Part shown: in pieces, positions 245 to 44,306 of the stretch
Position numbering within the stretch: position 1 is the stretch's first letter
Layout of the letters: each line of letters starts with the position of its first letter
Source: Somniosus microcephalus
Taxonomy: Eukaryota
Assembly (NCBI GenBank): GCA_052327205.1
Contig: JBMRGM010000043.1
Span: forward strand, 31,310,001 to 31,374,000
Length of the DNA: 64,000 nucleotides
Reading direction: 5' to 3'
The notes under the pieces: generated by a model
The model's input: only the letters and a program-made list of their open reading frames with translations
Databases searched by the model: none
Told to the model about the DNA's origin: nothing
Program-made: the position numbers and the translations under genes

Positions 245-496
245 CTCCTGGGCCGGAAGTGCTGGTTAGTTTTCCCAGCAGTGGTGTGGTAAAGGAAGGA
301 GAGGAATTTAAGCTGCAGTGTCGATACAGTGGCAAAGCTATTTACACTAATTGGTTAAAAAATAATATACATTTACATGAACCTCAGAGTGAGTTTTATG
401 AATCACTAGCAGACAGCAGCAGTGGAGGCTCTTACCAGTGTGATGTATGGTCAAACAAATCGGAGAGGAGTGAGGCTCTGGAAGTGGTCACAATCG
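245..496 (+). CDS. Gene A Ig exon 1 (APGPEV..LQCRY..W..GSYQC..VVTI)
   Basis: ctgcag acceptor, g/gtaggt donor, phase 1-1, two canonical Cys and Trp. Confidence 0.9.
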
Positions 497-1493: not shown

Positions 1494-1754
1494 CTTCTGA
1501 TATGATTTTAACTCTTGAAGTAAAACCAAGAGCCACGCTGTCAGGTGAAAGAATTATCCTGAATTGTTTGGTGTCTGACCAGAAAGGGAGAGGATACTTC
1601 CTGTGGTATCAGAAAGAAGAGATAATACATGGAAGTTCTCAATCTCAGTACATCATAACTAAAGCAGAAATTGCAGATGGGGCATCTTATCGGTGTGAAT
1701 GCAAAATAGGCTACAGGAAGTGGGTCTCGCAGGAAGTAAACCTCACCGTAACAG
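1494..1754 (+). CDS. Gene A Ig exon 2 (SDMILTLEV..LNC..FLWY..DGASYRCEC..VNLTVT)
   Basis: tttcag acceptor, ag/gttggt donor, 261 nt, Ig motifs. Confidence 0.9.
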
Positions 1755-2350: not shown

Positions 2351-3335
2351 CAATGTACTATGAGTCAGGAGGGATGTTTCTGGTCTTCCACAAAAGTTTC
2401 CTATTCATTTACAATGGCGGACCCCAAGAGAGGAGGGCTCTTGAAGGACACTGGTGGTGGAGCTTTCGTCCGCTTAATCTGCCAACCAAAGTCTTTGTGA
2501 GGATCCAAGGGCATCCTAAAGTGGTAGCAAGGTAGGTAGTTATTTGAATTAAATTCTCACCCCCAAACTCCTGCCTGTCGATCGTAGGTATTGGAAGATT
2601 TTGAACTGCTAATCTTTGGCTGCAACCAGAAAGCCCCATTTCAAAGTTAACATGAGTCTCCTGGCAGTGATCTCGGTCCTACTGATGTGTATGCAAACCA
2701 ACGTAAGACCATCCCAACATAGGCGGATTTGATGCTAATGGATGGAAGATTGTAGCTGGTTCAGGCTTATAGCTGAGGCCTGGAATATTTGGGGCACTCT
2801 TTACCTTATGTTGACAACGCATCTCTGGGACCTTGTGCCCACTGGCCGATTCAGAAGGCAAAATGAGCTGGATGCACTCCTTCCAGAATCTGGTGCTGTG
2901 GATGGAATGCTCCTCAAAAAATCCGGCGTAATTTCCTTCTTTTGAAATCAAAAGTGTACATATACGGCGGGTTCAGTGAGCAATACGTGATCCTTTGTGC
3001 CGGATTTTCTATTCCCTTTTCTGCTTATGAGTTTCTTAACCGCCGTGCCCAACGTAGATTATTTTCAGTGTTCCAACCTAAGAGTAGCTGGGCCAAATGG
3101 TGGGGAAGTGCTGCAGGAGGAGAGCAATACCAATGAACCCAAATTGGAACCATCAGTATATTCAACAGCAACTGTCCACTGCTTCCTTTCTGTTCTGTAT
3201 TTGCCCCAGCCTGGATTGGATTTGGGATTGGGATTATATAACGTGTCCAATGTATTCGGGCTGTTGTCGAAGCAGTTCTTCGTTTGATTTCATCATTTGT
3301 TAAACTAAACTACGAAATTTTGTTCCCAACATTAG

Positions 3336-3590
3336 ATGGCGATGTGGCCTTCCAGGTCGACCCACCTTCGGTTTTGGAAGGAGATGTTCTGAATCTGAAT
3401 TGTCGGTACAGAAAATATTATTTGTGGAAAGATGTTGGCTTTTACAAAGGAAATAGAAGGATCCACTCAATGAAGTTGTATTATTGGAACGCTCTGCATA
3501 GCATTAGAGTGAATAGTTCAAAAGACAGTGGATCATACCATTGTACTATTGACGAGAAAATTTATCGAAGTGTTCATGTTCACGTTCACG
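3336..3590 (+). CDS. Gene A Ig exon 3 (DGDVAFQVDPPSVLEGD..C..FYKG..DSGSYHC..VHVH)
   Basis: attag acceptor, g/gtacgt donor, 255 nt. Confidence 0.9.
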
Positions 3591-4637
3591 GTACGTATGC
3601 AAAATTTCAATTGGTGATACCCCTCTTTAATATTTATAAATATTACTGGTCCGAGAATTTCTGAATCTGTACAAAGTTATATATAGTTCTGTGATCTCGG
3701 AATAATTTGTTCACGTTAGGTCATATGATGTTTGTCTAACAACGTGCTACTTTAGTCGATATTTAACACGGGCGGGTCTCCTCCCATGCCAGCTCCAGCA
3801 GATTTCTTTCTCCTCCCGACCCACCTTTGAGGAGAATTTGGCGGCTTCCTCCATTACCACCATGTGACATCTAGAGGCTGACGGGCAGTTTTCTGCCACG
3901 AAACCGAAATTTGATGCTGCCTCTGTCCTTAATAAGCACGATGAGTATATTTGACAAAGTACCAGCAGGTCCTCGTGAGACCCTGGAACGTCAGTGGTCG
4001 GTCCGCTGACGAACATTGTGGAAGGATAGAATAAGCAGTGTGCTCCTCTCCACTCTGTTTTGCTATTTTCACTTACGTGTTTGGCGCAAACTTCGCCACA
4101 GACCCCTAATAAACTATGGGAGCAGATTCCCTTGGATGCCCTTGTCATCGCAGCGGGTGTGTTATATCATCACTGATCCATCACCCTGGCCGTGAGAATC
4201 TGGAGTCTTTGTAAATTCAGATGGTGACAACGGAGCAGGGGGCTTTGTTGGGGACAGAGCGATTTTGCTGCGACCAATTGTGGAGTTCACCGTGGTCATA
4301 ATAGATGGAGAGACACGGCAGATAATGGCTAAAAGAGAAAAGAGCTATGGGAGGATCCCTGCTGAAATATAAGTCTTGTCCTGGTTGGAATTTCTGTTTC
4401 AGCACTTTATATTAAGCAGATTAAGATCTCCGCAAACAAAGCAGCGAGAGGAATTCCACAACAATATAGTAATGCTTCCTGCTCTAGTGTTCCACAATAC
4501 AGCTGCTAGTTACCGTTAATTGTAGACGCCCCTCGTGGCGATTTGCGGTATTGCCTTGCTCCTATTAAAAAGCTCTGCTGTCTGTTTAACTCAGTGATAG
4601 GAAATGTTACCTGTCAATCCAGATTCTGCTTTCACAG

Positions 4638-4913
4638 AACTCTTCTCCAAACCTAAACTGAGGACTGACCCTGCAGTTGAAATATTTGAGGGACACCAGT
4701 TAGTATTCATCTGTATTATTGAAACAATGCCGTACAGTAATGGGCTTCAATACTCATTTTACAAAAATGGCAAAGCTCTGATATTGACTTCATACAACAC
4801 ATTTAAGCTCACGGAGACAGCTTCTTTGAAGGACTCGGGGACTTACCTGTGTGAAGCAAATATTTCCTACCGCGTTGTGAAAAAGAGTGATGAGGTTTCC
4901 ATTGCAGTTAAAG
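4638..4913 (+). CDS. Gene A Ig exon 4 (ELFSKPKL..FIC..YSFYKNG..DSGTYLCEA..KKSDEVSIAVK)
   Basis: cacag acceptor, ag/gtaagg donor, 276 nt; FCRL D3/PECAM-like start. Confidence 0.9.
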
Positions 4914-5459
4914 GTAAGGACAGCCAGCTGTAATTATAGTTGAATGAAAGAATTCTTCAGGGGATTATACTTAAATAAACATACGAGAGGGATCCAGTCT
5001 GGTAAAGGATTTACCCACAAGTTTATCACGTAATAATCAATTTTGAATGCAACCTGCTAAATGACAGCGCCACCTGGTTCTTACACTATCCATACATTTG
5101 CTGAAAACCGAAGTTTTAAAAGCTGCTACGTTTGAGGACCAGCGCCCACTCCCAGTGGGTAATAGTAGCTTCCTGAAATAGTGTGGAATTGGGCGATATT
5201 GAATTTATCTCCCATTATATGTCCCGACCGTTTTTGCATCCATTGATCTTCAATGGACAGGAATATCGCGCGTAGTGTAGAATTGGTGCAAGATTCGATG
5301 CCGTGCATTTTAACCCATAGCCCCAAGGTAAAGTTACCTTCCCTGTTTCTAACTGGCATATTCAGCAGCGAGCAGAACCTGGTCAGGAACAGCAGGGTGA
5401 TTAATCAGCCAATGCCTTACCACTTACTAGCCCCGGAAATCTTCTATAGTTGAAAACTC

Positions 5460-5593
5460 GGGGGTAAAATTTAACATTGACAGCGCTAAAACTGAACGGC
5501 AGAAAATTGAATTGAAATTGGCCTGTGTTTATAAAGGGTGATCAATCTGCTACCACCGGTTTTTTACCCCAGACAAACTTGAATTTTCACCCC
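5460..5593. mobile_element. Short palindromic MITE-like element (GGGGTAAAATT..AATTTTCACCCC); relatives near 11543-11675 and 39917-40028
   Basis: Terminal inverted repeats visible; copies at the same position in each cassette. Confidence 0.55.
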
Positions 5594-6242
5594 CTCCAAT
5601 TTCAGTAGCGGTGGATGCAAAATGCCCGAGGTCACTAACGTCTGTGCCTCTGGTGCCCGGGGATTCCTTCCCAATCTTTTAGATCCGACCAATCATAACT
5701 CGAGCTTTGCATTTTCAATGGGGCAGGCAATCTGAAAACAAGGTGGGAGTTATCAATCCTGTGTCGGCAGTGGATTTCAGAAAAATTGTATTGATAGTAG
5801 CTGAGCGTTTAACATGAAGGTCCTAAAATTTGCAGTTGCTGCCACAACGACCAAGGATATTTCAGTATTTAAGACCCGGGAGTAAAGCATCGCCTGGGCT
5901 GAGAGCTGAGTTCAAATGATGGGGTTGTGGGGTTGGGGTGTTGGGGGATAATCTCACAGGATCCGCAGGATGTTTCTTCCATTCATTTCAATGGAAGGGT
6001 TAACTTGTTCCCAAATCTAGCCACGACAGGATGTTCAGACCTCAAGTGATAACTGTGTCAAGGTCCCGAACTGCATATTCCCGTAGCAGAGCGCAATCAA
6101 GGATTATTGAAAGCCTCTTTCTCTGAGCTGCTGTCGGCTTTTCATTCTTCTGCTCATTAACGTGAGTTGTCCAAACACATAAATTGTTAAGTCTGTGATG
6201 GATGTGGAACCCGGAAAATCCATGCATTATTCTATTTTATAG

Positions 6243-6521
6243 AGGTCTTCTCCATACCTACACTGAGGGCTGAGTCTGGAGCTCAATTATTTGTGGACCA
6301 ACAGTTAAATCTCGCCTGTTTGGTTAAAATATTTCGATCCAATACTTCCTTGAGACTCGTATTTTACAAAGATGGACAATCTCTCACTTCAGCGGCAGAC
6401 AACAACTATTACATCAAGAAGGCATCTCGGCCGGACGATTCGGGGAATTACTGGAGCGAAGCAACTACTTTGAACAGTGAGGTGAAGAAACTGAGTAATC
6501 AGGTTTCCGTTTCAGTCAGAC
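6243..6521 (+). CDS. Gene A Ig exon 5 (EVFSIPTL..LAC..VFYKDG..DDSGNYWSEA; second Cys absent)
   Basis: ttatag acceptor, c/gtgagt donor, 279 nt open frame. Confidence 0.85.
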
Positions 6522-7595
6522 GTGAGTACAATTTAAGACAATGTTATAACACTTTTAAAGAGAACATGAAAATCATAGAATACGGGTAGCGCTGATTCAA
6601 CAGTACACCAGGGAAGTAAAAGTGTATTCACCAGGATAGACTTGAGGTATTGGGACTAACACTACCGGGTTAGCCATAGCTAAAGGTTATTTCATTAGTG
6701 GTTTTTAAATGCAAATTCCGAAATTGGGCGATTAGGGAAAGATATTTTCTCTGATTGCGAAGACAGGAAGGAGGGATCAGTAATGTATAATTATCATTAA
6801 AGCGGGAGGGTAGCGCTTAGAAGGACGTTCCGAGTGCTGGAACATAGAATGATTTGCCAGGTGGAGCGGTGGAGTTAGATAGAATTTTACAGTGAACATG
6901 AGGCTAGTGGCAGTGCCCTCGGGCCTACTGATGTGCGCCTGTCACTGCCCTACAGAAACCAGCGTAAGCCCGTCCCAACATAGGCAGATCTCTTGCTAAT
7001 GGATGAGAGAGTGTAGCTGAATCAGGCATGTAGCTGAGGCCAGGAAGGTTTGGCGCACTCTTTCCTTATCGTCACAACGCAACTCGGGCACTGTGTGCCC
7101 TCTGGGAGACTCAGAAAGCAAAAGGAGCTGGATGCACACCTTCCATAATCTGGTCGGAGGGGGGGATGGAATGCACCTCACAGAATCCGGTGGAGTTTCC
7201 TTCTGTTGAGATCAATGGAGTACATTTACTGTGAGTTCGGTAAGCAATAAGTGATCATTAGTGCTAGATTTTCTAATCCCTTATGTGCTCGGGCGTTGCT
7301 TAACCGTCGTTCCCAAAATAGTTTATTTTCAGTGTATCAAACTAAGAAGAGCTGGGCCAAATGGTGGGGAGCTGCTGCACGAGGATAGATTATCAATAAA
7401 CCCCATTTACAACCATCAGTAAATTCAACACCACCCGACTGCTGTTTCCTTTCTGTTCTTCTTTTTCCCAGACTTGCCTGGAGTTGGGATTGGGGTTTTC
7501 TCGTGTCCAATGTATACGGGCTGTTGTGGAGCAGTTCTCAGTTTGAGTTAAGCATTTGTTAAGCTAAAACCGCCACATTTTGTTCCCAACATTAG

Positions 7596-7853
7596 ATCGC
7601 AAAGTGGCCTTCAATGTCGACCCACCTTCGGTTTTGGAAGGAGGTGTTCTGAATCTGAATTGTTGGTTCAGAATGCATTATTGGAGGCATAAAGATGTTG
7701 GCTTTTACAAGGGCAATATAAGGATTCACTCAATGAAGTTGACCGATCGGAGAGCTCTGCATAGCATTAGAGTGAATAGTTCAAAAGACAGCAGATCATA
7801 CCATTGCACTGTTGGCAATAAGGAATCACGAAGTGTTCATGTTCACGTTCAAG
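7596..7853 (+). CDS. Gene A Ig exon 6 (paralog of exon 3)
   Basis: attag acceptor, ag/gtacgt donor, 258 nt. Confidence 0.9.
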
Positions 7854-7987
7854 GTACGTCGGCAATATTTCAATTGGCGATATCGCTCTTGGATATTTAT
7901 CCATATTACAGGTCCGAGAGGTTCTGAATCTGTCCACATTTATGCATAGCTGTGTGAGCTCGGAAGAATTTGTTCGTGTTAGGTCAT

Positions 7988-8709
7988 AGAGGCCTTGAAT
8001 TTCCGTTCGGCGATTTCCTGCCGGTAGATGCCTCCAATCGGAAACAAATCTACGAACTTACCTGCTGGTTTGGAGAGCCCGAGGCTTCCGATCCTGGGCC
8101 TCTCCTGTTGGAAATGCGCAGAGGCCCAGGTATCCCAGGGGCACATACGGTTTGCAAGCGCTCCTGGGATCACGTGAGAAAGGCGAACAAATCAAAGAAG
8201 GGAATCCCCCTTCATACATTTGACAGGTCTGTAGGGACTGAACTGTCAAAAGTATGATTGGGAACCACATTTAAAAACACACTAAAACAGTAAATAAACT
8301 ATTTAAAATTACAAAATTAAAATGAATTAAAATTCCATTTAATTAAATATTTTAAACATAATTTATAGAAAAAAAATTAAACATTTTTACTGGGCTATAA
8401 ATAATTTACCGTTTCAAGAGTATTTCTAACTTATAAGTGAGTGATCAAATTTGTTATTTCTAACTTTCATCACTCTTATGCCTACTTTTACCAGTCGGAC
8501 GAATTCTACAGCCTTTCAGCTGCCGGAAGTTGTGCAAACTCTCCAGCCACAGAGGCTCTTTTCTTGGGCAAGTGGATCATCTGTCAAGAGAATTCTTGAC
8601 AGATCGCAGGTGCCGGTTTTAAGCGCATACCTGAAATCGGTACCTGCAAGGCCCCTATGGGTGAGTACACAGCTCGTATGCACCCGTGGGGGTTGGAAAA
8701 CTTGGCCCA
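7988..8709. mobile_element. About 720 bp MITE-like insertion, same family as 29086-29784 in opposite orientation
   Basis: Absent at the homologous site in unit 1 (ggtcatatgatg near 3719-3730); imperfect TIRs; shared internal palindromic motifs. Confidence 0.7.
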
Positions 8710-9523
8710 TGATGGCTGTCTAACACCGTGCTACTTTAGCCAATAATTAACCCAGGGTGGGTCTCCTCCCGTGCTAACGCCGGCAGCTATCTTTCTCCTC
8801 CCGCCCCACCTCAGAGGAGAATTTGGCGGCTTCCCATTACCAGCCTGTTACATCAAGAGGCTGACGGGGAGTATTCCCCCACTAAACCGAAATATGATGG
8901 TGCCTCTCTCCCTAACAACCACGATGATGAGTTGACAAAATGCACCAGCAGGTACTCCTGAAAATTCAGTGGCGGGTCCGCTGATGGACTGTGTGGAAGG
9001 ACACAATAAGCAGTGTGCTCCTCTCCCCTCTCTTTTGCCCTTTCCACTTACCTGTTTGGCATAAGCTTAATCACAGGCTCCTAATAAAATCTGTACGCTG
9101 ATGCCGTTGGATGCCCTTATCATCGCAACGGGTGAGTTATATCATCACTGATCCATCACCCTGGCCGGGAGAATCGGGAGTCTTTTTAATTTCAGATGGT
9201 GACAGCTGAGCTGGGGGCTGGCTAGGGACAGAGCAATGTAGCTGTGGATATTGGTGGAGTTCACCCTGGTCATACTAGATGGTGAAGACGCAGCAGAGAA
9301 TGGCTAAAAGAGAAAAGATCTAAGGGAGGATATTCCTGCTGATAATTAAGCCTTGCCCAGTATGGAATTCCGGTTTCAGCAGAATAAATTAAGCAGGTTA
9401 AGTTCTCCGCAAACAAAGCAGCGAGAGGAAATCCATAAAAACATAATAATGCTTCCTGCTCTAGTGATCCACAATACAGCTGCTGGTTACCATTAAGTAT
9501 AGGCGCCCATCGTGGCTATTCTC

Positions 9524-10614
9524 TAGATGTAATCTCTCCAAATTTGCAGACAACACAAAGCTTGCTGGGCGTGTGTGCTATGAGGAGGATGCCAAGAAAC
9601 TCCAGGCTGATTTGGAGAGATTGGGTGATTGGGCAAAAGCGTGGCAGATGCAATATAACGTGGATAAATGTGAGGTTATCCACTTTGGTGGCAAAAACAG
9701 GAAGGCAGATTATTATCTGAATCGCAATAGATTGGGAGAAGGGGAAGTGCAACGAGACCTGTGTGTCCTTGTGCACCAGTCGCTGAAGGTAAGCATGCAG
9801 GTGCAGCAGGTGGTTAAGAAGGGAATTGGCATGTTGGCCTTCGTAGCGAGATGGTTTGAGTACAGGAACAAGGATGTCTTGCTGCAGTTATACAGGGCCG
9901 TGGTGAGACCACACCTTGAGTATTGTGTGCAGTTTTGGTCAGCTTATCTGAGGAAGGATCACAGATCACAGAAACCCCACAGTGCAGATAGAGGCCATTT
10001 CGGCACATATCCCACCCAATCCCCGTAACCCCTACACCAAAACATATCCCCATTTAATCCCCCTAACACTAAGGGTCAATTTATCATAGCCAATCAACCT
10101 AACCCGCCATGGAAGGAGTTCAGCGAAGATTCACCAGGCTGATACCTGGGATGGCAGGAATGACGTATGAGGAGAGATTGGGTCGATTGGGCTTGTCCTT
10201 GCTGGAGTTTAGAAGAATGAGAGGGGATCTCATTGAAACTTATAAAATTCTGACGGGACTGGACAGACTAGATGCAGGAAGAATGTTCCCGATGGTCGGG
10301 CAGTCCAGAACCAGGGGTCACATTCTAAGGATAAGGGGTAAGCCATTTAGGACAGCAATGAGGAGGAATTTCATCACCCAGAGAGTGGTGAACCTGTGGA
10401 ATTCTCTGCCACAGAAGGCAGTAGAGGCCAATTCATTAAATATATTCAAGAAGGAGTTGTATATATTTCTTAAGGCTAAAGGGATCAAGGGGTATGGGGA
10501 TAAAGCAGTGACCAGGTACTGAATTTGGTTGATCGGCCATGATCGCATTGAATGGCGGAGAAGGCTCGTGGGGCCGAATGCCAACTCCTGCTCCTATCTT
10601 CTATGTTTCTATGT
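9524..10614 (+). mobile_element. 5'-truncated CR1 LINE (RT C-terminus + 3'UTR)
   Basis: LQADLERLGDWAKAWQMQYNVDKC, RPHLEYCVQFW, RRMRGDLIE; (ttctatgt)n tail; candidate TTCTC TSD at 9519-9523 and 10615-10619. Confidence 0.92.
9960..10106 (-). mobile_element. 3' part of HE1/V-SINE-like shark SINE nested in the CR1
   Basis: Reverse complement reads cgggttaggttgattggc..aaattgacccttagtgt..aatggcctc..ctgcactgt; interrupts the CR1 ORF after LRKD. Confidence 0.75.
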
Positions 10615-10710
10615 TTCTCGGTATTGGCTTGCTCTTATTATCAATCTCTGCTATTTGTTTAACACAGTGATAGGAACTGTTACCTATCAATCCATATTCT
10701 GTTTTCACAG

Positions 10711-10989
10711 AACTCTTCACCAAACCTAAACTGAGGTCTGAGCCTGCAGTTGAAATACTTGAGGGAGACCAGTTAAAATTCATCTGTTTTATTGAAAATA
10801 TACCGTCAAATATTTGCTTAAAATATTCATTTTACAAAAATGGCACAGCTCTGATCTTGACCCCATACTACAAATATATTCTCACTGAGGCAGCTTCATT
10901 GAAGGACTCAGGGACTTACCAGTGCGTAGCAAATGCTTTCGACTTTGGTGTGAAAAAGAAGAGTGATGAGGTTTACATTTCGGTAACAG
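10711..10989 (+). CDS. Gene A Ig exon 7 (ELFTKPKLRSEPAVEILEGDQLKFICFIENIPSNICLKYSFYKNG..DSGTYQCVA..VYISVT)
   Basis: Not in the ORF track; translated by hand; ttcacag acceptor, ag/gtatgg donor, 279 nt open. Confidence 0.9.
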
Positions 10990-12177
10990 GTATGGACATT
11001 CAGCTTTAATTATTGTTCATCTTTCATTTAAAGAATTCTTCAGGGCATTATAGTTAAGTAACCATACGGGAGGGATCCGGTCTGGTAAAGGGTTAACCCT
11101 CAAGTTTATCGGGTATAAATCAATTTGAATGCAATCTTTTCAAATCTTATCACCACGTGGCTCTTATACAATCCTTACATTTGCTGAAAACCGCATTTGT
11201 AGGAGCTGCAAAATTTGAAGTCCAGTGCCCACTCTCAGTGGGTAACATTAGCTTCCTTCAGTAGTGTGGAAATGGGCGATTATGAAATTGCCTCCCATTA
11301 TTTGTCCCGCCCGTTTTTGCTTCCCATCATCTTCAGCAGACAGGAAAATCGTGCGTGGTGTACAATTGGCGCAAGCTTCGATATTGGAAATTTTACCCCA
11401 TGGCTCCAAGGTAAAGATACTTGCTCTGTTTCTGTCTGGCTGAATGAGAAACCAGCAGAACCTGGTCAGGAATAGCAGGGTGTTTAATCAGACAAAGCCT
11501 TAGCACTTACTAGTCCCGGAAATCTTTGATAGTTGAATACTCGGGGGTAAAATTTAACTTTGAGAGCGCAGTAGCGGATCAGCAGACAATGGAATTGAAA
11601 TTTGCCTGTGTTTATAACGGGAGGCCAATCTGCGACCACCGGTTTTGCACCCCATCGAAATTTGAAATTTCACCCCGTCCAATTTCAGTAGAGGTGGAAG
11701 AGGATGAGGAAAAACGCCCGAGGTCACTAAAGTGTGAGCCTTTGATGCCCAGGAATTCCGTTTCCACTCCGTTAGATCCGGTCAATCATAACGCTATCTT
11801 TGCATTTTCTATGGAGCAGGCAATCTGATGACAAGGTGGGAGTTATCGATCCTGTGTTGGGAGTGGATTTCCAAAGAATGGCATTGTCAGTTGCTGAGCT
11901 TCTAGCATGAATGTCGCAAAGTTTGCAGGCGCTGCAACAATGACGAAGGAGACTTCAGTATTTAAGGCCTGGGCGCAAAGCATCATCTAGGCAGAGAGCT
12001 GAGTTAAAATTCTGGATCAGGGGCGCGTTCTGGTGTTGTGGGCTAATCTCACAGGACCCGCAGGATGTGTCTTCCACTCAATGTTCCAAAGATTAACATT
12101 TGCTGCACAAATCCGAAATTGTAATGTCTGTGATAGTTGTGGAATCTGTCAAATCCATAATTCGTTCTATTTTATAG

Positions 12178-12456
12178 AGCTCTTCTCCGAACCTACTTTG
12201 CGGGCTGATTCTGGAGCTCAATTATTTGAGGGCCAACAGATAAAACTCGCCTGTTTGGTAGAAATATTTCGATCCAATTCTTCCTTGAGACTCGTATTTT
12301 ACAAAGATGGACAACCTCTCAATTCAGCGGCAGACCACAGCTATTACATCAGGGAAGCATCTCGGCCGGAAGATTCGGGGATTTACCGGTGTGAAGCAAC
12401 TACTTTGAACCGTGAGGTGAAGAAACTGAGTAATCAGGTTTCAGTTTCAGTCAGAC
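12178..12456 (+). CDS. Gene A Ig exon 8 (ELFSEPTL..LAC..DSGIYRCEA)
   Basis: ttatag acceptor, c/gtgagt donor, 279 nt. Confidence 0.9.
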
Positions 12457-13146
12457 GTGAGTACAATTTAAGATAATTGTTTATCACTTTTAAAGAGAAC
12501 AGGAAAATCATAGAGAACGAGTAACGCTGATTCAACAGATGATGCCAGGGAATGGAAATTTTATTCAACAGGATAGACTTGAGCCACTGGGACTAACACG
12601 GGTTTGCCATGCCTAAGAGTTATTTCATCAGTGCTTAGTACATGCCAATTGCGAGATAGGGCGATTAGGGAAAGCTATTCCCTCTGTTTGCGAAGACAGG
12701 AAGGAGGATCAGTAAAGTATAATTATCACTAAAAGCGAGAGGGTAGCGCTTACGTGAACATTTTATGTGTAGCTGACTGCTGGAAAGTAGAATTATTTGT
12801 CAGGTGGAACGGTGAAGTTAGATACCACTGCATTTAGGTAGAGTAATGTTTATGGTATTGGAATAGTGCAGAGTTCCTGCTTTTCACTAGCAGAGTCAGG
12901 AGGAATAAGGACCAGGCCAACATAGTAGGGTGGCCATAAGTGGATTGCAGTAGGAATCATTGTCGTTCCAGGATCAGGCTTTCCTCTATTAATTCCACCT
13001 ACTGCTAAAGTAGGAGAGGGAGACGGGCGCCCAATATTGGTGTGGTAACCTATATGTCGAGCCTTCTTTATTATGATGAGAACCCTATTTCACTTTGAAA
13101 GTAATGCTACAAATTCTGCAAAAGCAATGTAATTAACAATTTGCAG

Positions 13147-13434
13147 GAACCCCAGTGTCAAAACCGGAACTGGCAATCAGCCCTGGTAAAGAGTTAATAG
13201 AAGGAGACACAGCGTCGTTAACCTGCTCAGTGTTCAACGGTTCTACCCCGATTACTTACATTTTCTACAAAGACCCGGATAAAGAACTCTTCCGTGAGGA
13301 GTCCAACCTAACCGAAATTAATTACCAAATCAGTGAAATCAACCAAAGCACCCAAGGGGATTATAGTTGCGGTGTTTCAAACAAAGCGACAGGACGTCCT
13401 CTGCAAAGCGATGTTGTTACAGTTTCAGTGATAG
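13147..13434 (+). CDS. Gene A Ig exon 9 (TPVSKPEL..LTCSVFNGSTPITYIFYK..GDYSCGVSN; FCRL D5-like)
   Basis: tgcag acceptor, ag/gtgagt donor, 288 nt. Confidence 0.9.
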
Positions 13435-13824
13435 GTGAGTTATTATAAGTACCCCTGAGGCAGAACGAAACAAGTGGCTCAAAGTCAGATGAGCCCGGTA
13501 ATCACTGCTTGTGCCATCAGCTTGGATGGTGTAACATTTTCTTTGACATTCCTCTATGTGAAGTGAGGCACTGCACCATTTACATTAAACAGGTGAATTA
13601 CTAAAAAGAACTAGAATGTCATCTGATCGCATCAAGTATTGGTCTATAAACTGCAACAGTTATTTGTAGGTTTAAAAAGGCCGATCAGTATGTTTAATTG
13701 ACAAATTGAGGGAAGTAATACGGATAATTTAAGGACTCAAAACTTAATGCCATAGGTAGTAGTTTCTGGGCTATATGTTTTAGACCACCATTTCTCGACA
13801 GTTGTTGCTAATATATTTGTATTC

Positions 13825-14416
13825 GTTTATGTGATGTGGGTATCTCTGGCAATGCCAGAATTTATTGCCTATCCCTAATTGCCCTTGAGAAGGTAGTGCT
13901 GAGCGGCCTTCTTGAACCGTTGCTGTCCGTGTGTTGACGGTACTCCCGTAGTGCTGTGAGGGAGGGAGTTCCAGGAATTTGACGCAGTGACGATGAAGGA
14001 TCGGCGATAAACTTTTAAATCAGGATGGTAGATGATTTGTAAAGGATCTTACAGGTGCGGTGTCCCCATGCCTCTTCTGCTCTTGTCCTTCTAAATGGAA
14101 GAAGTATCGGGTTTGGGAGGTGCTGCCGAAGAAGTCTTGGCATGTTGCTGCAGTGCATCTTGTAGATGGTGCACACTGCAGCCATGATACGCTGGTGGTG
14201 GAGGGAGTGAATTTGTTACTTGTTGGATGATGTGCCAATCAAGGAGGCTGCTTTGTACTGGCTGGTGTCGAGCTTCTTGAGTGTTGTTGGAGCTGCACTT
14301 ATCCAGGCAAGTGGAGAGTATTCCGTCACACGACTTACTTGTGCCTTGTAGATGGTTGAAAGGCTTTGGGGAGTCAGGAGGTGAGACACACGCCGCGGAT
14401 TACCCAGCCTCTGCCC
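13825..14416 (-). mobile_element. LINE 3' end fragment (family with ccaccttctcaagggcaattaggg tail); ortholog at about 41800-42395
   Basis: The paralogous copy translates HSLHHWHTVAAVCTIYKMHCSNSPRLLRQHLP; shared 3' tail. Confidence 0.75.
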
Positions 14417-14438
14417 TATATCGATATCATGGTACCAG
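14417..14438 (+). pseudogene. Remnant 3' end (YIDIMVP + donor) of the membrane-proximal Ig exon deleted in gene A
   Basis: tatatcgatatcatggtaccag/gtag matches 43353-43374; downstream intron aligns. Confidence 0.75.
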
Positions 14439-15287: not shown

Positions 15288-15389
15288 CACAAAGTCACAC
15301 AACCGCGATCACAGCAGCCGTTGTTCCACTTTTTCTGATCGCTACCCTGATTGCACTGGTTTCCTTCAAACTTCGGAAAAAGAAACAAG
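15288..15389 (+). CDS. Gene A transmembrane exon (QSHTTAITAAVVPLFLIATLIALVSFKLRKKKQ)
   Basis: ttccag acceptor, ag/gtgagc donor; hydrophobic helix without charged residue followed by basic stop-transfer. Confidence 0.92.
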
Positions 15390-19046: not shown

Positions 19047-19103
19047 CTTCTAGTTCTGATCAGGTAACCTACAGTTTAGTACAAGGCACGAAGCCCATGG
19101 AAG
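19047..19103 (+). CDS. Gene A cytoplasmic exon 3 with ITIM VTYSLV
   Basis: Polypyrimidine-ctacag acceptor, ag/gtaagg donor, 57 nt. Confidence 0.88.
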
Positions 19104-19849: not shown

Positions 19850-19915
19850 ATATTACCGGAAATGCTGCCAATTTAGTGTATTCGGAGGTCACGATCAGAA
19901 AGTCACGAGAATGTG
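19850..19915 (+). CDS. Gene A cytoplasmic exon 4 with ITIM LVYSEV
   Basis: Long pyrimidine tract-tttag, g/gtaaat donor, 66 nt. Confidence 0.88.
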
Positions 19916-20039: not shown

Positions 20040-23000
20040 TGGGGGTTGGGAATCAGGTGAAGGGGAACTTCGAAAGTCAAAGAGAAGGTTGAAGGTAATA
20101 GTGCAAGGTAGCGATAGGGTTAATGATAACTAGAGAGTGACAGAAGGAGATAGAGCATACAAACATAAACCTGCAACTACACATAGATTCAGAGTCGGTA
20201 AAAATGGTATAAAATAAATAAAGGTTATTTATCTGAATGCACACAGCATTCGTAACAAGATAGATGAGTTGGTGGCATGAAGAGAAATAAATGTGTGTGA
20301 TCTGAAAGCCATTACAGAGACGGGGTTGCAAGGTGACCAAGGCTGGGAACTGAATATTCAGGGGTATTTGACATTTCGGAAGAATAGGCAGAAAGCAAAA
20401 GGAGTTGGGTAGCTCTTTTAATAAAGGATGATATCAGTGCAGTGACGAGAAATGAAATTGCCTCAGGAAATCAAGATGAAGATATAGTTTAAACGGAGAT
20501 AAGAAATAATAAGTGAAATAAGTCACTAGAGGGAGCAATCTATAGGCCTCGTAAAAGTACCTACACTGTAGGACAGAGTATAAATCTTGAAATAAGATTG
20601 GCTTGTAAGAAATGTACTGTGATAATCATGGGCAATTTTAATCTTTATATAGATGGAACAAATCGAATTGACAAGGTTAGCCTTGAGGACGAGTTCATAG
20701 AATGGATTCAGGATGGTTTGCTAGAACAATACGTTGTGGAATCAACCAGGGAGAAGGCTATTTTAGACCTGGCAATATGTAATGAGGCAGGATTAATTCA
20801 TGATCTCATGGTAAAGGATTCTCTAGGGAACAGTGATCATAGCATGATGAATTTCTAATTCAGTTTGAGGGTGAGAAACTTGGGTCTGAAACTAGTGTCC
20901 TAAACTTAAATAAAGGCAGTTACAAAGGTATGAAGGCAGAGTTGGCTAACGTAGACTGGGAAAATAGATTAATGAGTAAGACGGTAGAAAATCAGTGACA
21001 GATATTTAAGGATATTTTTCGTAACTCTCAGCAAAGATTTATTCCAGCGTCAAAGGCAGACTCTACGAGAAGGATGAACATCTGTGGCTAACTAAAGAAG
21101 TTAAAGACGGTATCAAATTGAAAGAAAAGGCAGATAATGTTGCAAAAATTAGTGGTAGGTCAGAGGATTGGGAGATTTTTGGAATTCGGCAAAGGATGAA
21201 TAAAAAACTAATAAAGAGGAAGAAATAGATTATGAAAGGAAACTAGCACAAAATATAAAGGAACAGACAGTAAGAGCTTCTACATGTATATAAACGGGAA
21301 GAGAATAGCTAAAGTAAATGTTGGTCACTTAGAGGATGGGACTGGGGAATTAATAATGGGAAATAGGGAAATGGCAGAGACTTTGAATACACTAAAAGCA
21401 TCACAATAATAATTGGTAATCAAGGGGCTATGTTCACAATATATATCAGTAATTTAGGTGAGGGTACCAAATGTAATATTTCCAAGTTTGCTGACGTCAC
21501 GAAACCAGGTGGGATTGTGAGTTGTGAGGAGGATGCAAAGAGGCTTCAAGGTGATTTGGAGAAGTTGAGTGAATGGGCAAATACATGGCAGATGCAGTAT
21601 AACGTGGATAAATGTGAAGTTATCCATTTCGGTACAAAAAACAGAACGGCTGAATATTATTTAAATGTTGATAGATTGGGAAATGCTGAATTACAGAAGG
21701 ACCTGGCCGTCCCTGTACACCAGTCACTGAAAGCAAACATGGAGGTGCAGCAAGCAGTTAGGATGGCAAATTATATGTTGGCCTCCATTGCAAGATGACT
21801 TAAGTAGAGGAAAAAGGAAATCTTACTACATTATACGTGGCCTTGGTGAGACCTTGTGCATTTTTGGTCTCCTCACCTAAGAAAGGATAAACTTGCCACA
21901 GAGGGAGTGCAGCGAATGTTCACCAGTCTGATTCCTGGGAAGGCAGGACTGTCGGATGAGCAGAGATTTGGTCGACTAGGCCTGTATTCACTAGAGTTTA
22001 TAAGAATGAGAGGGGATCTCATTGAAACGTATAAAATTCTGACAGTGCTAGACAGACGGGATGCAGGGAGGATGTTTCCCTGGCTGGGCGGGTGGGGTCT
22101 AGAACGATGGGTCACAGTCTCAGGATGCGGGGTAGGACATTTAGGACTGAGATGAGGAGAAATTTCTTCACTCAGAGGGTGGTGAACCTATGTAATTCTC
22201 TACCACAGATGGCTGTCGAGGCCAAATAACTGAATATATTTTTAGAAGGAGATAGCTAGATTTCCAGACACAAAAGGCATCAAGGGGTATGAGTAGAGAG
22301 CGCGAATATGATATTGAAATAGATAATCAGCCATGATCACATTGAATGGCGAGCAGGCTCAAAGGGATGAATGGCCTACTCCTGCTACTAATTTTCAATT
22401 CACTATGTTTTCTAAATCAATGACTATCACTAGAGAAAAACTGCGAGGCAAATTAATGAGACTAAAGACTGACAATTGCCCTGGACCTGATGGCCTACTT
22501 TCAAGGGTCTTAAAAGAAGAGGCTCCAGAGATACTGGATGCGTTGTTTGTAATCGACCAAAATTCCATGGATTCTGGCAAGCTCCCAGTGCCTTGGAGAA
22601 CCGCAAATGTAGCACTTCTATTAAAGAAAGGAGGGAGGCAAAAAGCAGGAAACTATAGGCCAGTTAGCCTAACATCTGTCATTGGGAAAATGCGGGAATC
22701 CATTATTAAGGAAGTCATAGCAGGACATTTAGAAAATCCTAATGCAAACAAGCAGAGTGAACATGGTTTTATGGAAGGGAAATTGTGCTTGACAAATTTA
22801 CCAGAGTTCTTTGAGGATGTAACGAGCAGGGTGGATAAAGGGGAACCATTAGATGTGGTGTATTTGAATTTCCAGAAGGCATTCGATAAGGTGCCACATA
22901 AAAGGTTACTGCACAAGATAAGAGCTCATGGGGTTGGGAGTAATATATTAGCATGGATAGTGGATAGGATAACTAACAGAAAAATGAAAAGCCGGGATAA

Positions 23001-23995
23001 ATGGGTCATTTTCCAGTTGGCAAACTTTAACTAGTGGGGTGCCACAAGAATCAGTGCTGGGGCCTCAACTATTTACACTCTATAGTAATGACCGGGCCAA
23101 ATTTGCTGATGATACAAAGATAGGTGGGAAACAAATTGTGAGGAGTACACAATTAGTTTGCAAATATAGATATGTTAAGTAAGTGGGCAAAAATATCGCA
23201 GATGAAGTTTAATGTGGGAAAATGTGAGATTATCAACTTTGGTAAGAAAATTAAAATAACAAATTATTATTTAAATGGAGGGAGACTATTTAATCCTGCC
23301 ATACAGAGGGATCTGGGTGTCCTCGTATTTGAAACACAAAAGGTTAGCATTCAGGTACAGAAAGTAATTAGGAAGGCAAATGGAATGTTGTCCTTTATTG
23401 CCAGGGGGTGGAGCATTAAAGTAGGGAAATCTTGCTACAACTGGAGTACTGCGTGCAGTTTTGGTCTCCTTATTTCAGGCGGGATATACCTGCATTGGAG
23501 ATAGTTCAGAGAGGGTTCACTAGGCTAATTCCTGAGATGAAGCGATTGTCTTCTGAAGAAACGTTGAGCAGGATGGGCCCATACACATTGGTGTTTAGAA
23601 GAATGAGAGGTGATCCTATTGAAACATATAAGATTCTGAGGGAGCCTGACAGGGTAGATTTAGGGAGGATGTTTCCCCTCGTGGGGGAATCTAGAAGTAG
23701 GGAGCACAGTCTCAGGATAAGGGATCGCCCATTTAAAATGGCGATGAGGAGTAATTTCTTCTCTGAGGTTCGTGAATCTTTGGAATTCTCTACCCCAGTG
23801 AGCTGTGGAGGCGGAGTCATTGATTGTATTCAAGGCGGAGATAGACATATATGTGAGCTACAGGGGAGCGAAGGGTTTTGAGGAGCGGATGGGAAAGTGG
23901 CGTTGAGGGCAATATCAGATGAGAAATGATCTTATTGAATGGTGGTGCTGGTTCGAGGGACCGAATGGCCTACTCTTGCTCCTATTGCTTATGTT
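20040..23995 (+). mobile_element. Composite of two decayed CR1 LINEs (EN + RT C-terminus to about 22395; second RT copy about 22400-23995)
   Basis: LYLNAHSIRNK, ILDL..LGNSDH endonuclease motifs; PGPDG, NYRPVSLTS, FQKAFDKVPH, KFADD; frameshifts and stops. Confidence 0.9.
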
Positions 23996-24289
23996 TCTTA
24001 TGAAATATCACGTAGATGTTATTAGCACATGTAATTTTTACCTTACTCAGCCTGGCCGAAAATGGACAGGGTCTGGTGAAATGCGGTTCTCAATCGCACC
24101 CATTTTTACCCTCCTACTACAATGGAGAGAAAATCCACTGGGGATAAACCCAGAAATTGTCCCGATCCCTTCAGTTTACCGGCAGGGTAGGTGAGATTAA
24201 AATGACCCCGGATTAGGCTGGATTCATCTAATTCTGTTCATCAACTTCCCCAGATTGTTTCATTTATAATGCGTCTCCTTTATTTACAG

Positions 24290-25804: not shown

Positions 25805-25933
25805 GCTAACAAGAATGGTCCCAACGACTATTGTGTCACATACGCCATAGTTAACCGTGCAAACACTGAAGCTAGTTTGGAAGGAGGCCCAATGGAAGAA
25901 GGCTGTGTCTACGAAAACTTTCCACGGAAATAA
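25805..25933 (+). CDS. Gene A last coding exon (ANKNGPNDYCVTYAIVNRANTEASLEGGPMEEGCVYENFPRK*)
   Basis: tccag acceptor, phase 0, ITIM VTYAIV, terminal YENF, TAA at 25931-25933; frame and stop conserved in gene B. Confidence 0.88.
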   Translation, partial: ANKNGPNDYCVTYAIVNRANTEASLEGGPMEEGCVYENFPRK

Positions 25934-34039: not shown

Positions 34040-35645
34040 GATAGACAGTTCTTTGTTGAAGTAACAGGGAATGCTAATCAAATTAGTGCAGTTCACTGTC
34101 GTGTATATAGACTTTCAAAAAATGCCTAATGAAGTACCACACAACTGACTTGTTCGCAAAAATCGTATTGTTATCATTGCGATTAAGGGGTACGGACAGC
34201 GTGGATAAGAAATTGTCTGAGACAAGGAAGCAGAGAATAGTTTTCAATTTTCGTTTTCTGTGATTGGAAGGGAATATTCAGTGTTATTCATAGTCATAGA
34301 GTTATACAGCACAGAAAGAGGCCCTTCGGCCCATCGTGTACACGCCAGCCATCAAGCCCTATCTATTCTAATCCCATTTTCGAGCTCTTGATCCGTAGCC
34401 TTGTATGCTGTTGCGTTTCAAGTGCTCATCTGAATGCTTCTTGAATGTTGTGAGGGTTCCTGCATCTACCATTTCATGATGATATGGAAATATATGGAAA
34501 GCGTACTTATTCTGTGTCGCTTTTATGCTTTCGCTAGTAAATCTGATGGGAGAGTGCATGGAGCACACTCCGACCATTCTGTTCTGCAATGACATACGGG
34601 GTGGGAGGCGGTGACTAGTGGTGTTTTGCAAGGATCAGTGCTTGGGCACCAGCTATTCACAATAAATATCAATGATTTGGATGAGGGAACCAAATATAAT
34701 ATTTCCAAGTTTGCTGATGAAATGACACGAGGTGGGATCGTGAGTTGTTATTAGGAGGCAAAGTGTCTTCAAGGAGATTTAGACAAGTTGAGTGAGTGGG
34801 CAAAACCATTGCAGATGCAGCATAACGTGGATAAATGTGAAGTTATCCACTTCGGTTGGAAAAACAGAAAGGCAGAGTACTAAATAAATGGTGATAGATT
34901 GGGAAATGTTCATGTATAAAGGGACCTGTGTGTCCTTGTACCCCAAACACTGAAAGCAAATATGCAGGTACAGCAAGCAGTTAGGAAGGCAAGTGGTATG
35001 TTGATATTCATTGCAAGAGGATTTGAGTACAGGAGCAAGGATGTCTTTCTACAGTTATAGAGGGCCTTGGTGAGACAACACCTGGAGTACTGTGTGCAGT
35101 TTTGGTCTCCTTACCTAAGAAAGGATGTACTTGACATAGAGGGAGTGCAGCGAAAGTTCACCAGACTGGTTGCCGGGATGGCAGGACTGTCGTATGAGGA
35201 CAGACTGGGTCGACTAGGCCTGTGTTCACTACAGTTTAGAAGAATGTGTGGATCTCATTGAAACGGTTAAAATTCTGGCAGGGCTACGCAGACTGGATGC
35301 AGGGAGGATGTTTCCCCTGGCTGGCGTGTCTAGAACGAGGGGTCACAGTCTCAGGATACGGGGTAGGAAGTTTAGGACTGAGACGAGGAGAAACGTCTTC
35401 ACTCATAGGGTGGTGAACCTGTGGAATTCTCTACCACAGAAGGCTGTGGAGGGCGAGTCACTGAATATATTTAAGAAGGGGATAGATAGATTTCTAGACA
35501 CAAAAGGCATCAAGGGGCATGGGGAGAGAGCTGGAATATGTTTGTGAGACGTAGGATCTGCCATGATCATATTGAATGGCAGAGCATGCTCGAAGGGCTG
35601 AATGGCCTACTCCTTCTCCTATTTTTCCATGTTTCTGTCTTTCTA
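34040..35645 (+). mobile_element. CR1 fragments (old RT piece, minus-strand 3' end at about 34270-34470, RT-3'UTR copy at about 34600-35645)
   Basis: SVLG, KFAD, HLEYCVQFWSPYLRKD, RVVNLWNSLP motifs. Confidence 0.85.
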
Positions 35646-35957: not shown

Positions 35958-36212
35958 CCCATGTCCCAGAAGTAGTCCTTAGCAATCCGAGCGATGGAAT
36001 CGTGAAAGAAGGGGAGACATTTTACCTGCAGTGTCGATACAGAGGCATGGAAAAATTGGCTTATTGGTATAAAGATGAGACTTATATTCATTTTAAATAT
36101 ATGTTCTTTGAAAGATATGCAGATAGTCGCAGTGGAGCGTCTTACCAGTGTTCAGTGCCGCTGCCTTGGTCCTCCTCTGAGAAGAGTAAACCTCTGGATT
36201 TAGTCACCATTG
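35958..36212 (+). CDS. Gene B Ig exon 1 (AHVPEVVL..LQCRY..YWYK..SYQC..LDLVTI)
   Basis: ctacag acceptor, g/gtaggt donor, 255 nt. Confidence 0.9.
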
Positions 36213-38028
36213 GTAGGTAAACTTCGACACCAATGATCATAGCACAGTTTTAGTCGAGAAATGTGTCGCTTATAAAGGGGCCTCACAGTCAAATATAGTA
36301 CAGGATATCAAGCACATGCAATACTGGGATAAAATTGGACCACTGGGCAGAAGTGTATCTTCATCCCTCCTCCTAACAGGGGGACCTCTCGGTTTCCCCA
36401 GAGTTGAAATATATGCCGCTATTTTGTGCGGTAGTATCAGCCAGTTTCACCTCCCATTTATATCACATTAACTTCAATTGAAATATCGCACAGAGTCTAA
36501 ATCTACCCAAATTCTTACATGTTGTTAGGTCAATCAAATGTTATTTATTTCAAGAGAGACCTTAAACCGCTAATTGTGCATGGAACAGCGGCTCTCTAAA
36601 ACAGCAGATACGAGAAAGCCACCGTTAATATCTCCTAGAGTAATTTTAAGACTGTGTTGAAAGCTTAAATTCTATTTCCAAAGTTCAAACTACAAAATCT
36701 GTGATCTGCAAACTAGTTTATATTAATAATAATGACATCTGAGAATTGCTGTGTCGCCTTCTGGCTGCGTTGTGTCGCTGGTCTGATATGCAATGACTTC
36801 TCCATTTAAACATTACTTCATCCTCTGCGAAATAGGTTGTAGGGTGACCCATCACAGGTTTAAAATCCAACTTTGGTGGAAGCACGTAATGGGCTCTACT
36901 CTCTCCAACCCTGTTACAAATCAAATGTAAAAGTCATAAAACCGACTGCTGTTTCGTATTCGCTCATTTGCCGCCAATGTGTATTGCAAATTTATACCGG
37001 AGTGGGAATAACTTTACCTTTCATCGCAGGGTGAAATAAACAGGCGAGGTCCAATCAATCGCCATGTTTTAGATTCAGGTGGAGTCGCATTTCTATTTAC
37101 TTCAGTGTTAAATAAATCGAGAGTGGTTTGAAACTTATGGCTGCTCCATTACTGCCCTTTGGCCTCTTGGCGGTAAAAGTGAAAAGTAGCTCAAGTGTAT
37201 CCTCCCGGCGCTCCCCTGGGATCAGGATTGGTTGGAAGTGCATCTGCAGACCCGAGGCATGGTGAGAAGTGGAGTGTACATTTATCTTGTGTCTCTCAGA
37301 AAACAAATTATTATGAGGTGCAACGAATGCTTTTATCTAGGTAATAAGCAATGCTAGAAAAATTGTTGATAGGTGACTAACTAGGGGCGCTCCTTGAGCA
37401 CTGCCACAAGTTTATTGTATGTGCAGTGCAAAAACCCTTTACATACATAAATGGGGTTCCCTTCCGCACACCTGGCGAAGTTACAGCGGAGGAGCGAAGG
37501 CAGGAAATTGCCCTGTGTTTCCACAAAAGGTAATGGGACAATGAGCAGCTAATTTGTTTGGTCTTGCTGGACGAACGAGCAATACCCCAGGACACTGGAA
37601 CGACTTCTTCGTCTTGGCGTCGTTCAATGGGATTTTTAACTGATATCAGAAGCACCTGAACAGGTGAAAGCGGCCACGGTTTTAATATCTTGATTCCACA
37701 ACATTTACAAATACCAGACGTTTATTTAGAGAGGGCTGGGCATCTGCCTGGCTGTTGAATCGATCCTCGCCATTGAACTTAGTTGATGAAACCTTGAAGG
37801 GCAATATGAGCAGTGATAGCTCAGCATTAGAAAGGGAACGGTCACTCTCTGAACCAATAAACATTAGTTTGGCTTTTCAGGTCTTAAAATTACTTTTAGT
37901 TACTGAGGTGATACCGATTGCTCTGGATATTGAGCTGCACTTTCAAGCCAATGTTTTTTAACATTGAAGAATGGTGCTTTAACATATTTTAATTTGTATT
38001 TCGTTCATATGTTTCACTTTTTTTGCAG

Positions 38029-38295
38029 CTTCTGATATGAATTTAACTCTGGAAGTGAATCCAACATCCGCACTGTCAGGTGACAGTATTATCCTGAAAT
38101 GTTTGATGCCTTCCTGGAAATGGAGAGAAGGTTTTCCCTTCCTGTGGTATCGAGATAAACAGTTAATAGCAGAAACTGACGAATCTCAGTACACCATAGA
38201 AAACGCAAAAGAGTCAGATACGGCACCATATCGGTGTGAACTCAAAATACGTTACAGGAAGTGGATCTCCCCGAATGTAACCATCACCATAAAAA
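38029..38295 (+). CDS. Gene B Ig exon 2 (SDMNLTLEV..LKC..FLWY..YRCELK..VTITIK)
   Basis: tttgcag acceptor, a/gttggt donor, 267 nt. Confidence 0.88.
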
Positions 38296-38377
38296 GTTGG
38301 TCACTGCTTTTCTTTTTCATTTTCTTTATTTGATCTGGTAATGAGCTGTTGAAGGATGTGAAGTATTCTAAGAATCC

Positions 38378-38680
38378 TTGGCCTATATATGACTGCACAA
38401 CCACAGAAATGTGGTTGACTCTTAATCCCCTCTGAAATGGCTTGGCAAGCTACTAAGTTTTATCAAAGCACTAGAAAAAACTGTAAGATTAAAACTTGGA
38501 GGAACACCTGGCATTGAACTAGGCATCATATTCGGACACAGATAAGACACACAGTCAACCCTGCAAAGCCCTCCTCCCTAACATCTGGGGACTTCTGCAA
38601 AAATTGGGACAGCTGTCCCACAGACCAGTCAAGCAATAGCCTGTCATAGTGATGATCACAGAATCATACCTTCCAACCAA
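38378..38680 (+). mobile_element. LINE 5'UTR plus endonuclease N-terminal fragment
   Basis: Translates LLPNIWGLLQKLGQL..*PVIVMITESYL (APE motifs); upstream part aligns with 25140-25240. Confidence 0.65.
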
Positions 38681-44204: not shown

Positions 44205-44306
44205 CACAAAGTCACACAACCGCGATCACAGCAACAGTTCTTCCACTTTTTCTGATCGCTGCCCTGATTGCACTGGTTTTCTTCAAACTTCGGAAGCAGA
44301 AACAAG
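44205..44306 (+). CDS. Gene B transmembrane exon (TAITATVLPLFLIAALIALVFFKLRKQKQ)
   Basis: ttccag and ag/gtgagc; uncharged helix. Confidence 0.92.

Follow-up and report, generated by a model that had tools for sequence, protein, structure and literature searches.

The locus described here raises the question of why two exons of one receptor gene should be alike over most of their length and differ sharply in a few short patches. It lies in a 64,000-nucleotide stretch of the shark Somniosus microcephalus (assembly GCA_052327205.1, contig JBMRGM010000043.1, here C43; C43:31310001-31374000), which we call the window; coordinates below are window positions unless a contig is named. The gene is of the Fc receptor-like (FCRL) type, and its exons 3 and 6 each encode a D2-type immunoglobulin (Ig) domain. 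A preliminary description, made from the sequence, had interpreted the patches as hypervariable loops like antibody complementarity-determining regions (CDRs), placed on the face with which classical Fc receptors bind Fc and giving one receptor two differently tuned sites. We think it probable, though far from certain, that the distal-face differences between these germline-duplicated D2 exons reflect diversifying selection across a cluster of paired receptors, imposed by a changing ligand rather than by IgG-style Fc.

The gene reads in phase through nine Ig exons, one uncharged transmembrane (TM) exon and six cytoplasmic exons, and its tail carries three motifs of the immunoreceptor tyrosine-based inhibitory (ITIM) type, VTYSLV, LVYSEV and VTYAIV. 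Two leader exons, deduced from weak hits, likely lie upstream of the window (L049). Exons 3 and 6 (255 and 258 nt; Table 1) are both open, in phase 1-1 and bordered by AG and GT. Several features associate the gene with the FcR/FCRL family. First, there is one Ig domain per phase-1 exon. Second, a type I TM segment is joined to an ITIM-type tail or, alternatively, is charged. Third, Ig types D1-D5 are represented, with D1-D2-D3 in order. Domains were typed by matches to solved structures, with modest single-domain E-values; by these matches exon 2 is D1-type (mostly FcgR domain 1), exons 3 and 6 are D2-type, exons 4 and 8 are D3-type, as are exons 7 and 5 that duplicate them (exon 4 scores on D1 as well as D3), and exon 9, which best matches FCRL5 domains 6-7, is D4/D5-type. 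Judged by its sequence, the gene is an ITIM-bearing FCRL-type receptor. A word-based protein search for longer relatives gave no matches, but a HMMER profile search did find relatives; the ten looked up (the best nine and the twelfth) comprise six from sharks or rays and four from frogs. Three of the six shark or ray proteins are labelled FCRL5-like, and the shark and ray relatives correspond domain for domain to the window gene.

The two D2 exons belong to an internal tandem duplication of a D2-D3-D3 unit (2638-6881 versus 6884-12824) that is 80-84% identical, introns included. Aligned over 84 codons they show 22 amino-acid differences plus one extra codon, and 15 of the 22 sit in 18 patch codons; when codon columns were shuffled and the three best windows chosen freely, 15 was reached in one of 5000 shuffles (mean 11.0). 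The preliminary description gave the three patches and the extra codon correctly. Its further statement that the framework is near-identical is right in that the framework is mostly alike, but slightly too strong, with 14 of 198 bases differing (93% identity). Identity is 85% over the whole exon and 81-84% in four flanking intron stretches, and nonsynonymous divergence (pN) of the patches is 0.47, against 0.06 for the framework and a divergence of 0.16-0.19 for the four intron stretches. Of the seven differences outside the patches, two, at codons 1-2, belong to the D1-D2 hinge and lie on the same face as the patches, making a fourth patch that had been overlooked. The patches were also described as rich in aromatic and basic residues, which holds for the BC loop (7/8 in exon 3, 8/9 in exon 6), partly for C'E (3/4 and 2/4), but not for FG (2/6 and 1/6), the framework having 18/66 and 19/66. 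An assembly artefact as the origin of the two exons was rejected: the introns differ by 16-19%, and reads from two further DNA runs cover both regions.

The AlphaFold model of exon 3 (predicted local distance difference test, pLDDT, 88.6) places strands B at 17-24, C at 32-37, C' at 40-46, E at 51-57, F at 65-71 and G at 79-83, and agrees with the assignment of the patches to the BC, C'E and FG loops. The fold is C2-type, and the best Foldseek matches of the exon 3 model are FceRI and FcgR chains (template modelling score, TM-score, 0.73-0.79), in support of the D2 type found by the domain matches. Together with the D1-D2 hinge, the patch loops are predicted to form one membrane-distal face. 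The model of the full-length relative P0005 has a predicted TM-score (pTM) of 0.46 and a TM-score of 0.50-0.58 to FcgRI D1-D3 at a root mean square deviation of about 20, and does not fix domain angles such as the sharp D1-D2 bend by which classical FcgR and FceRI expose the D2 face. In FcgRI, Fc is contacted by the hinge (102-104), BC loop (127-133), C strand (133-136), C' strand (142-148), C'E loop (148-149) and FG loop (171-176) (PMC9940316). When this footprint is transferred to the cluster D2s by sequence alignment, the patch loops fall on it, and the fold model concurs; to that extent the patch face does correspond to the Fc-binding face. Nowhere in the cluster is conservation stronger than in the D2 C' strand, although FcgRs use this strand as a main Fc contact, and the strand is similar in other sharks (relatives P0001, P0004, P0007 and P0012).

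Site models were fitted to 20 distinct intact D2 exons, with broken copies excluded. M2a is favored over M1a (likelihood ratio test statistic, LRT, 20.0, P 4.6e-5), with 21% of sites at a ratio of nonsynonymous to synonymous rates (dN/dS) of 3.3, and M8 is favored over M8a (P 7e-6). In a loop-class test, for which 12 lineages were picked from the 20 exons and the loops were defined from the fold model, dN/dS is 2.12 in the top loops (P 0.0004), 0.84 in the bottom loops and 0.86 in the strands. Taken singly, the BC loop is at 2.97 (P 2e-5), while C'E (1.9, P 0.09) and FG (1.42, P 0.24) are not significant; the selection signal is mainly that of the BC loop.

This signal withstands several challenges. 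First, removal of the exon-3, exon-6 and L020 lineages leaves the patches as originally drawn at 2.24 (P 0.0007), so that the result is not circular. Second, dN/dS of the BC loop is 2.96-4.23 under six of six gap placements and 3.72 in the nine ungapped lineages. Third, M2a is still significant when doublet mutations are allowed (P 0.0004), and null simulations with recombination gave a highest LRT of 6.8 in 15 runs, against 21.1 observed. Finally, 66 pairs were examined, and in 16 of the 19 whose introns align over more than 300 bases patch pN exceeds intron divergence.

Several observations weigh on the other side. Without the distant lineages L037 and L039 the top loops fall to 1.51 (P 0.12) and the BC loop to 1.83 (P 0.06), and in an 8-lineage subset lacking these two and exon 6, M2a gives P 0.7. 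A patch class with its own synonymous rate is marginal (2.08, P 0.044), and with codons 28-31, the gap region, masked it is at 1.61 (P 0.22). The framework is itself at 0.8-0.9, and the whole domain is therefore weakly constrained. Recombination is detectable (P 0.03-0.07 in a test like the pairwise homoplasy index), there are just 15 null runs, and the codon models are our own implementation rather than codeml. With these included, the diversifying-selection signal on the distal face is real and moderately robust.

It is not restricted to the D2 domain. M2a is also significant for the exon-2 and exon-4 types, and not for the exon-1, -8 and -9 types and a further proximal type; correspondingly, BC-loop dN/dS is 2.0 in D1 (exon-2 type) and 3.2 in D3 (exon-4 type), and 0.3-0.9 in the four types without a significant M2a. 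Since the BC loops of D1 and D3 are raised too, the diversified unit is D1-D2-D3 and not D2 alone, and an effect peculiar to D2 was rejected. The earlier claim of diversifying selection on the patches stands insofar as dN/dS exceeds 1 across paralogs, but the signal is chiefly that of the BC loop and extends beyond D2.

Recent copies present a different picture. The 11 recent copies of exon 6 have one patch change in all, and among the 10 copies of exon 3 the FG loop has three variants, with BC and C'E unchanged throughout. The label "CDR-like hypervariable" is too strong, since the patches hardly vary among recent copies; what it describes is germline divergence of older paralog lineages. Somatic or RAG-type diversity was considered and rejected, given this near-invariance, the absence of any exact match to the consensus recombination signal sequence in the window, and a domain that is C2-type and not V-type.

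A DNA search found 40 D2 exons, every one of them on C43, which is a lower bound; the genome was covered by DNA and single-protein searches with matches on C43 only, and the gene total is therefore a minimum. These exons represent 25 distinct sequences, 33 of the 40 are open, and they lie in at least 29 genes, 11 of which have two D2s, spanning C43 30.38-31.91 Mb and 25.39-25.48 Mb. In 804 kb of the cluster region that was fetched for a survey of TM and ITIM exons, 28 TM exons were found: 19 uncharged, seven with an N-terminal arginine (Arg-TM) and two unreadable in the TM frame. The Arg-TM exons (C43:30500743, 30784792, 30843273, 31394560, 31540866, 31613510 and 31830938) show 77-79% DNA identity with the uncharged TM exon; their motif is TxxR in five cases and NxxR in two, both of the latter in genes with broken Ig exons. 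No ITIM exons were found behind them in the fetched DNA. Inhibitory and Arg-TM genes are intermingled and have related ectodomains, as do the XFL paired receptors of Xenopus, and the Arg-TM genes are likely the activating partners of the inhibitory ones. A candidate adaptor is provided by an FcR-gamma-like TM exon (L112, C40:10607082-10607165), with a CD247-like one elsewhere (L111, C14:86659861); both are of the zeta/gamma family, and we take the former to be FcR-gamma rather than CD247 and the latter to be CD247-like. The Arg-TM paralogs may couple to this FcR-gamma-like chain. Kilobase-long stretches of the 11 double-D2 genes show about 99% identity, and four of these genes are intact in all Ig exons examined. 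We infer from these arrangements that the cluster consists of paired receptors in birth-and-death turnover.

Three further observations concern cluster organisation. Minus-strand genes at 30.40-30.65 Mb are in part a mirror image of those at 30.69-30.88 Mb, forming an inverted duplication centred near 30.67 Mb. The Arg-TM genes L020 (C43:31382717) and L019 (C43:31601907) have no differences in 670 upstream intron bases. L020 alone has three FG-loop bases in common with exon 6 of the inhibitory gene, likely a micro-conversion.

On the basis of the exon structure, the duplication, the clustering of differences, the size of the cluster and the dN/dS values, we propose the following. Exons 3 and 6 are germline duplicates of a D2-type domain in an FCRL-type gene; after internal duplication of the D2-D3-D3 unit most of the changes fell to the exon-6 lineage, which has since hardly altered in its 11 recent copies. 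The window receptor would inhibit through its ITIMs and its Arg-TM paralogs would activate through the FcR-gamma-like chain, with the D2-D3 unit, and mainly its BC loops, setting specificity. The putative driver is a changing ligand such as a microbial surface or a polymorphic self molecule. FCRL3 and FCRL5 directly bind a bacterium (PMC12534707).

Alternatively, these may be true shark Fc receptors, with D2 binding Ig constant regions, the C' strand as common anchor, the rim tuned to IgM, IgW, IgNAR or their gene clusters, and exons 3 and 6 reading two isotypes. The D1-D2-D3 order is that of FcgRI and FCRL5, and the variable sites overlap the FcgRI footprint: seven of the nine sites with posterior >=0.9 lie within its 30 columns (P 0.008), and in the cluster its rim is at dN/dS 2.21 versus 0.44 for the C' strand. 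However, the sandwich of Trp104 and Trp127, conserved in all FcgRs (PMC9940316), is absent, none of the 18 aligned D2s having Trp at either of the equivalent columns (D1-D2 hinge and BC loop). IgG-style Fc binding is therefore not indicated, and the patches do not imply Fc binding. Human FCRL4 and FCRL5 nonetheless bind Ig, FCRL5 binding IgG, via D1-D3 and with a surface different from that of FcgRs (PMC12757038), so that the Trp pair is dispensable for Ig binding in general. At least 29 genes in birth-and-death turnover would better suit a fast-changing ligand than a few isotypes, and we consider an Fc-receptor function unlikely.

A second alternative accepts family-wide selection but treats exon 6 as a relaxed or decaying duplicate, serving as a stalk or dispensable domain. 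Exon 6 has a stop in four of 11 copies, two of these with a 3'-end insertion as well, and Gly has become Arg in the motif before its second Cys; in exon 5 serine replaces the second Cys, which is missing in all 11 copies compared. The incomplete double-D2 genes (four of 11 intact) and the exon-6 branch, which is not significant on structure-defined loops (2.39, P 0.13) and no higher there than other lineages, fit the same view. Decay, however, would scatter changes, and those private to exon 6 are concentrated, at 10 of 19 patch codons versus four of 66 framework codons. In the patch codons exon 6 has ten private residues and exon 3 two, indicating that the internal copy did the changing. The exon-6 branch is at 3.94 in the patches as first drawn (P 0.011, the patches having been chosen after the fact), and its framework is at 0.43-0.67. 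In addition, seven of the 11 copies remain intact, and a run labelled as a second organism, from the same study, contains a stretch nearly identical to exon 6. We therefore give decay only a modest chance, and exon 6 may possibly contribute the second, differently tuned site of the preliminary description. Two RNA runs, of unknown tissue and dominated by repeats, have 19 and 23 reads on 3250-7950, none on exon 6 and no splice joint among the matches listed, and are too thin to judge expression; a search for RNA data sets containing exon 6 listed none. Repeat fragments near 9.5-10.6 kb and 14.2-14.4 kb take most of the RNA reads of the first 20 kb.

It is also conceivable, though distinctly improbable, that the exon-6 loops have re-adapted to a new neighbor, exon 6 being preceded by a D3-type domain and exon 3 by a D1-type, so that the changes would tune a joint. 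By strand topology all patches and codons 1-2 are at the N-terminal pole, most change is on the exon-6 lineage, and within the DNA fetched no D1 exon was found upstream of the most divergent D2s (L037 and L039), which carry much of the signal. Yet BC loops differ also among D2s behind a D1 exon, those of D3 are diversified too, and FcgRs keep this face open to ligand (PMC9940316). Finally, we regard as very unlikely that tolerant loops, gene conversion and misalignment produced the pattern with no selection, since the recombination signal, the tract common to L020 and exon 6, the BC-loop indel and the loss of significance among close lineages must be set against bottom loops of the same domain at 0.84, proximal-type BC loops at 0.3-0.8, patch divergence above that of introns, and a signal left standing by the recombination simulations and the doublet model.

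Among the closest known systems are the Xenopus XFL genes, which form large tandem clusters with D1-D5 types in shuffled architectures and exon recombination, combine uncharged TMs and ITIM tails with arginine TMs, and have D2s that vary in the FG and C'-F regions and lack Fc-contact residues (PMC2413239). Unlike in XFL, the shark variation centres on the BC loop, with dN/dS above 1 measured, and the Arg-TM exons are followed by separate cytoplasmic exons, whereas XFL TM1 and its tail share one exon (PMC2413239). Mammalian FCRL3/4/5 resemble the window gene in having D1-D2-D3 followed by D4/D5-type domains and an ITIM tail, and FCRL5 is the best match of exon types 3/6 (by profile), 8 and 9; they differ from it in its extra N-terminal domain, internal D2-D3-D3 repeat and at least 29 D2-bearing paralogs. 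Classical FcgR and FceRI are similar in D2 fold and in the position of the variable face, but their D2 face is conserved, they have the Trp sandwich, and the putative activating shark genes have an arginine-type TM instead of the FcgR-type motif. Receptors of the leukocyte receptor complex (LRC; LILR, KIR and CHIR) and teleost LITRs share paired signalling, arginine TMs and cluster turnover; the cluster Ig domains match FcR/FCRL better than LILR.

Loop variation of this kind is expected for paired receptors and known in Xenopus, and the interest of the locus is the presence of the family in the shark lineage. According to a 2014 survey, sharks yielded neither FcRL nor FcR-gamma nor LRC-type genes (PMC4016189); a 2026 review has cartilaginous fish without FCRLs and asks how antibody serves phagocytosis there (PMC13337447). 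The cluster described here contrasts with this published absence: its genes, at least 29, have the domain types of FCRLs and include both signalling classes, and the genome also has a candidate adaptor. The family is already present in public gene sets through automated labels: "Fc receptor-like protein 5" and "PECAM-like" entries from Heterodontus, Hemitrygon, Stegostoma and Chiloscyllium agree with the window gene in their domain types, the order of these and the tail motifs, though in none of 23 tabulated annotated proteins does a D2 follow immediately on a D3-type domain, as it does in exon 6. No description of this shark family was found in the open-licence literature searched. If the assignment is correct, the FCRL family would date to the origin of jawed vertebrates, and the selected loops point to residues relevant for a ligand search.

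The chromosomal setting was also considered. FcR-gamma, PEX19 and PRCC, which we take as markers of the human FcR region at 1q23, are absent from C43 (zero of three), the FcR-gamma-like gene and PEX19 being on C40 and PRCC on C41; synteny of this sort would back membership of the FcR/FCRL family but does not define it. PRPF31 and NDUFA3 are neighbors of the LRC (PMC6557307), and exons of both lie at C43:16219709-16296005, about 15 Mb from the window; CNOT3 is on C28, and a search for DNAAF3 gave no match anywhere. One block of neighbor genes would be only a hint of LRC linkage. It is tempting to see in the cluster a missing cartilaginous-fish Fc-receptor family, paired through ITIMs and FcR-gamma, with D2 faces tuned to different shark Igs, exon 6 as a second site and an LRC-neighbor chromosome preserving the state of the FcR/LRC common ancestor, but we think this rather unlikely.

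Table 1. Features of the inhibitory receptor gene in the window (window positions).
Feature	Position	Strand	Basis
Ig exon 1, weakly D1-like	245..496	+	domain matches
Ig exon 2, D1-type	1494..1754	+	FcgR domain 1 matches
Internal duplication of D2-D3-D3 unit	2638..12824	+	80-84% identity
Ig exon 3, first D2-type domain	3336..3590	+	domain matches, fold model
Exon 3 patch 1, strand B end plus BC loop, carries most of the selection signal	3404..3427	+	
Exon 3 C' strand, conserved in paralogs, dN/dS 0.44	3455..3478	+	
Exon 3 patch 2, C'E loop	3479..3490	+	
Exon 3 patch 3, FG loop, aligned to FcgRI 171-176	3548..3565	+	
Ig exon 4, D3-type, diversified BC loop	4638..4913	+	
Ig exon 5, D3-type, second Cys to Ser	6243..6521	+	
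Ig exon 6, second D2-type domain, internal duplicate	7596..7853	+	
Exon 6 patch 1, BC loop with one codon more than exon 3	7664..7690	+	
Exon 6 patch 2, C'E loop	7742..7753	+	
Exon 6 patch 3, FG loop	7811..7828	+	
Ig exon 7, D3-type, duplicate of exon 4	10711..10989	+	
Ig exon 8, D3-type, duplicate of exon 5	12178..12456	+	
Ig exon 9, D4/D5-type	13147..13434	+	FCRL5 domains 6-7 matches
Uncharged transmembrane exon	15288..15389	+	
Cytoplasmic exon, ITIM-type VTYSLV	19047..19103	+	
Cytoplasmic exon, ITIM-type LVYSEV	19850..19915	+	
Last coding exon, ITIM-type VTYAIV, terminal YENF, stop	25805..25933	+	

Two further paralogs are represented in the remainder of the window. The first (35958-55350) is without a D2; it has exons of the exon-1 and exon-2 types, two proximal domains, an uncharged TM and ITIM-type exons, its D3 exon near 39085-39360 is broken, and one cytoplasmic exon is duplicated. 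At 59287-62082 are the likely leader exons of a third paralog, which extends past the window and has an Arg-TM. Interspersed repeat fragments are located at 9526-10618, 13816-14417, 21431-24000, 34601-35645 and 62610-63987.

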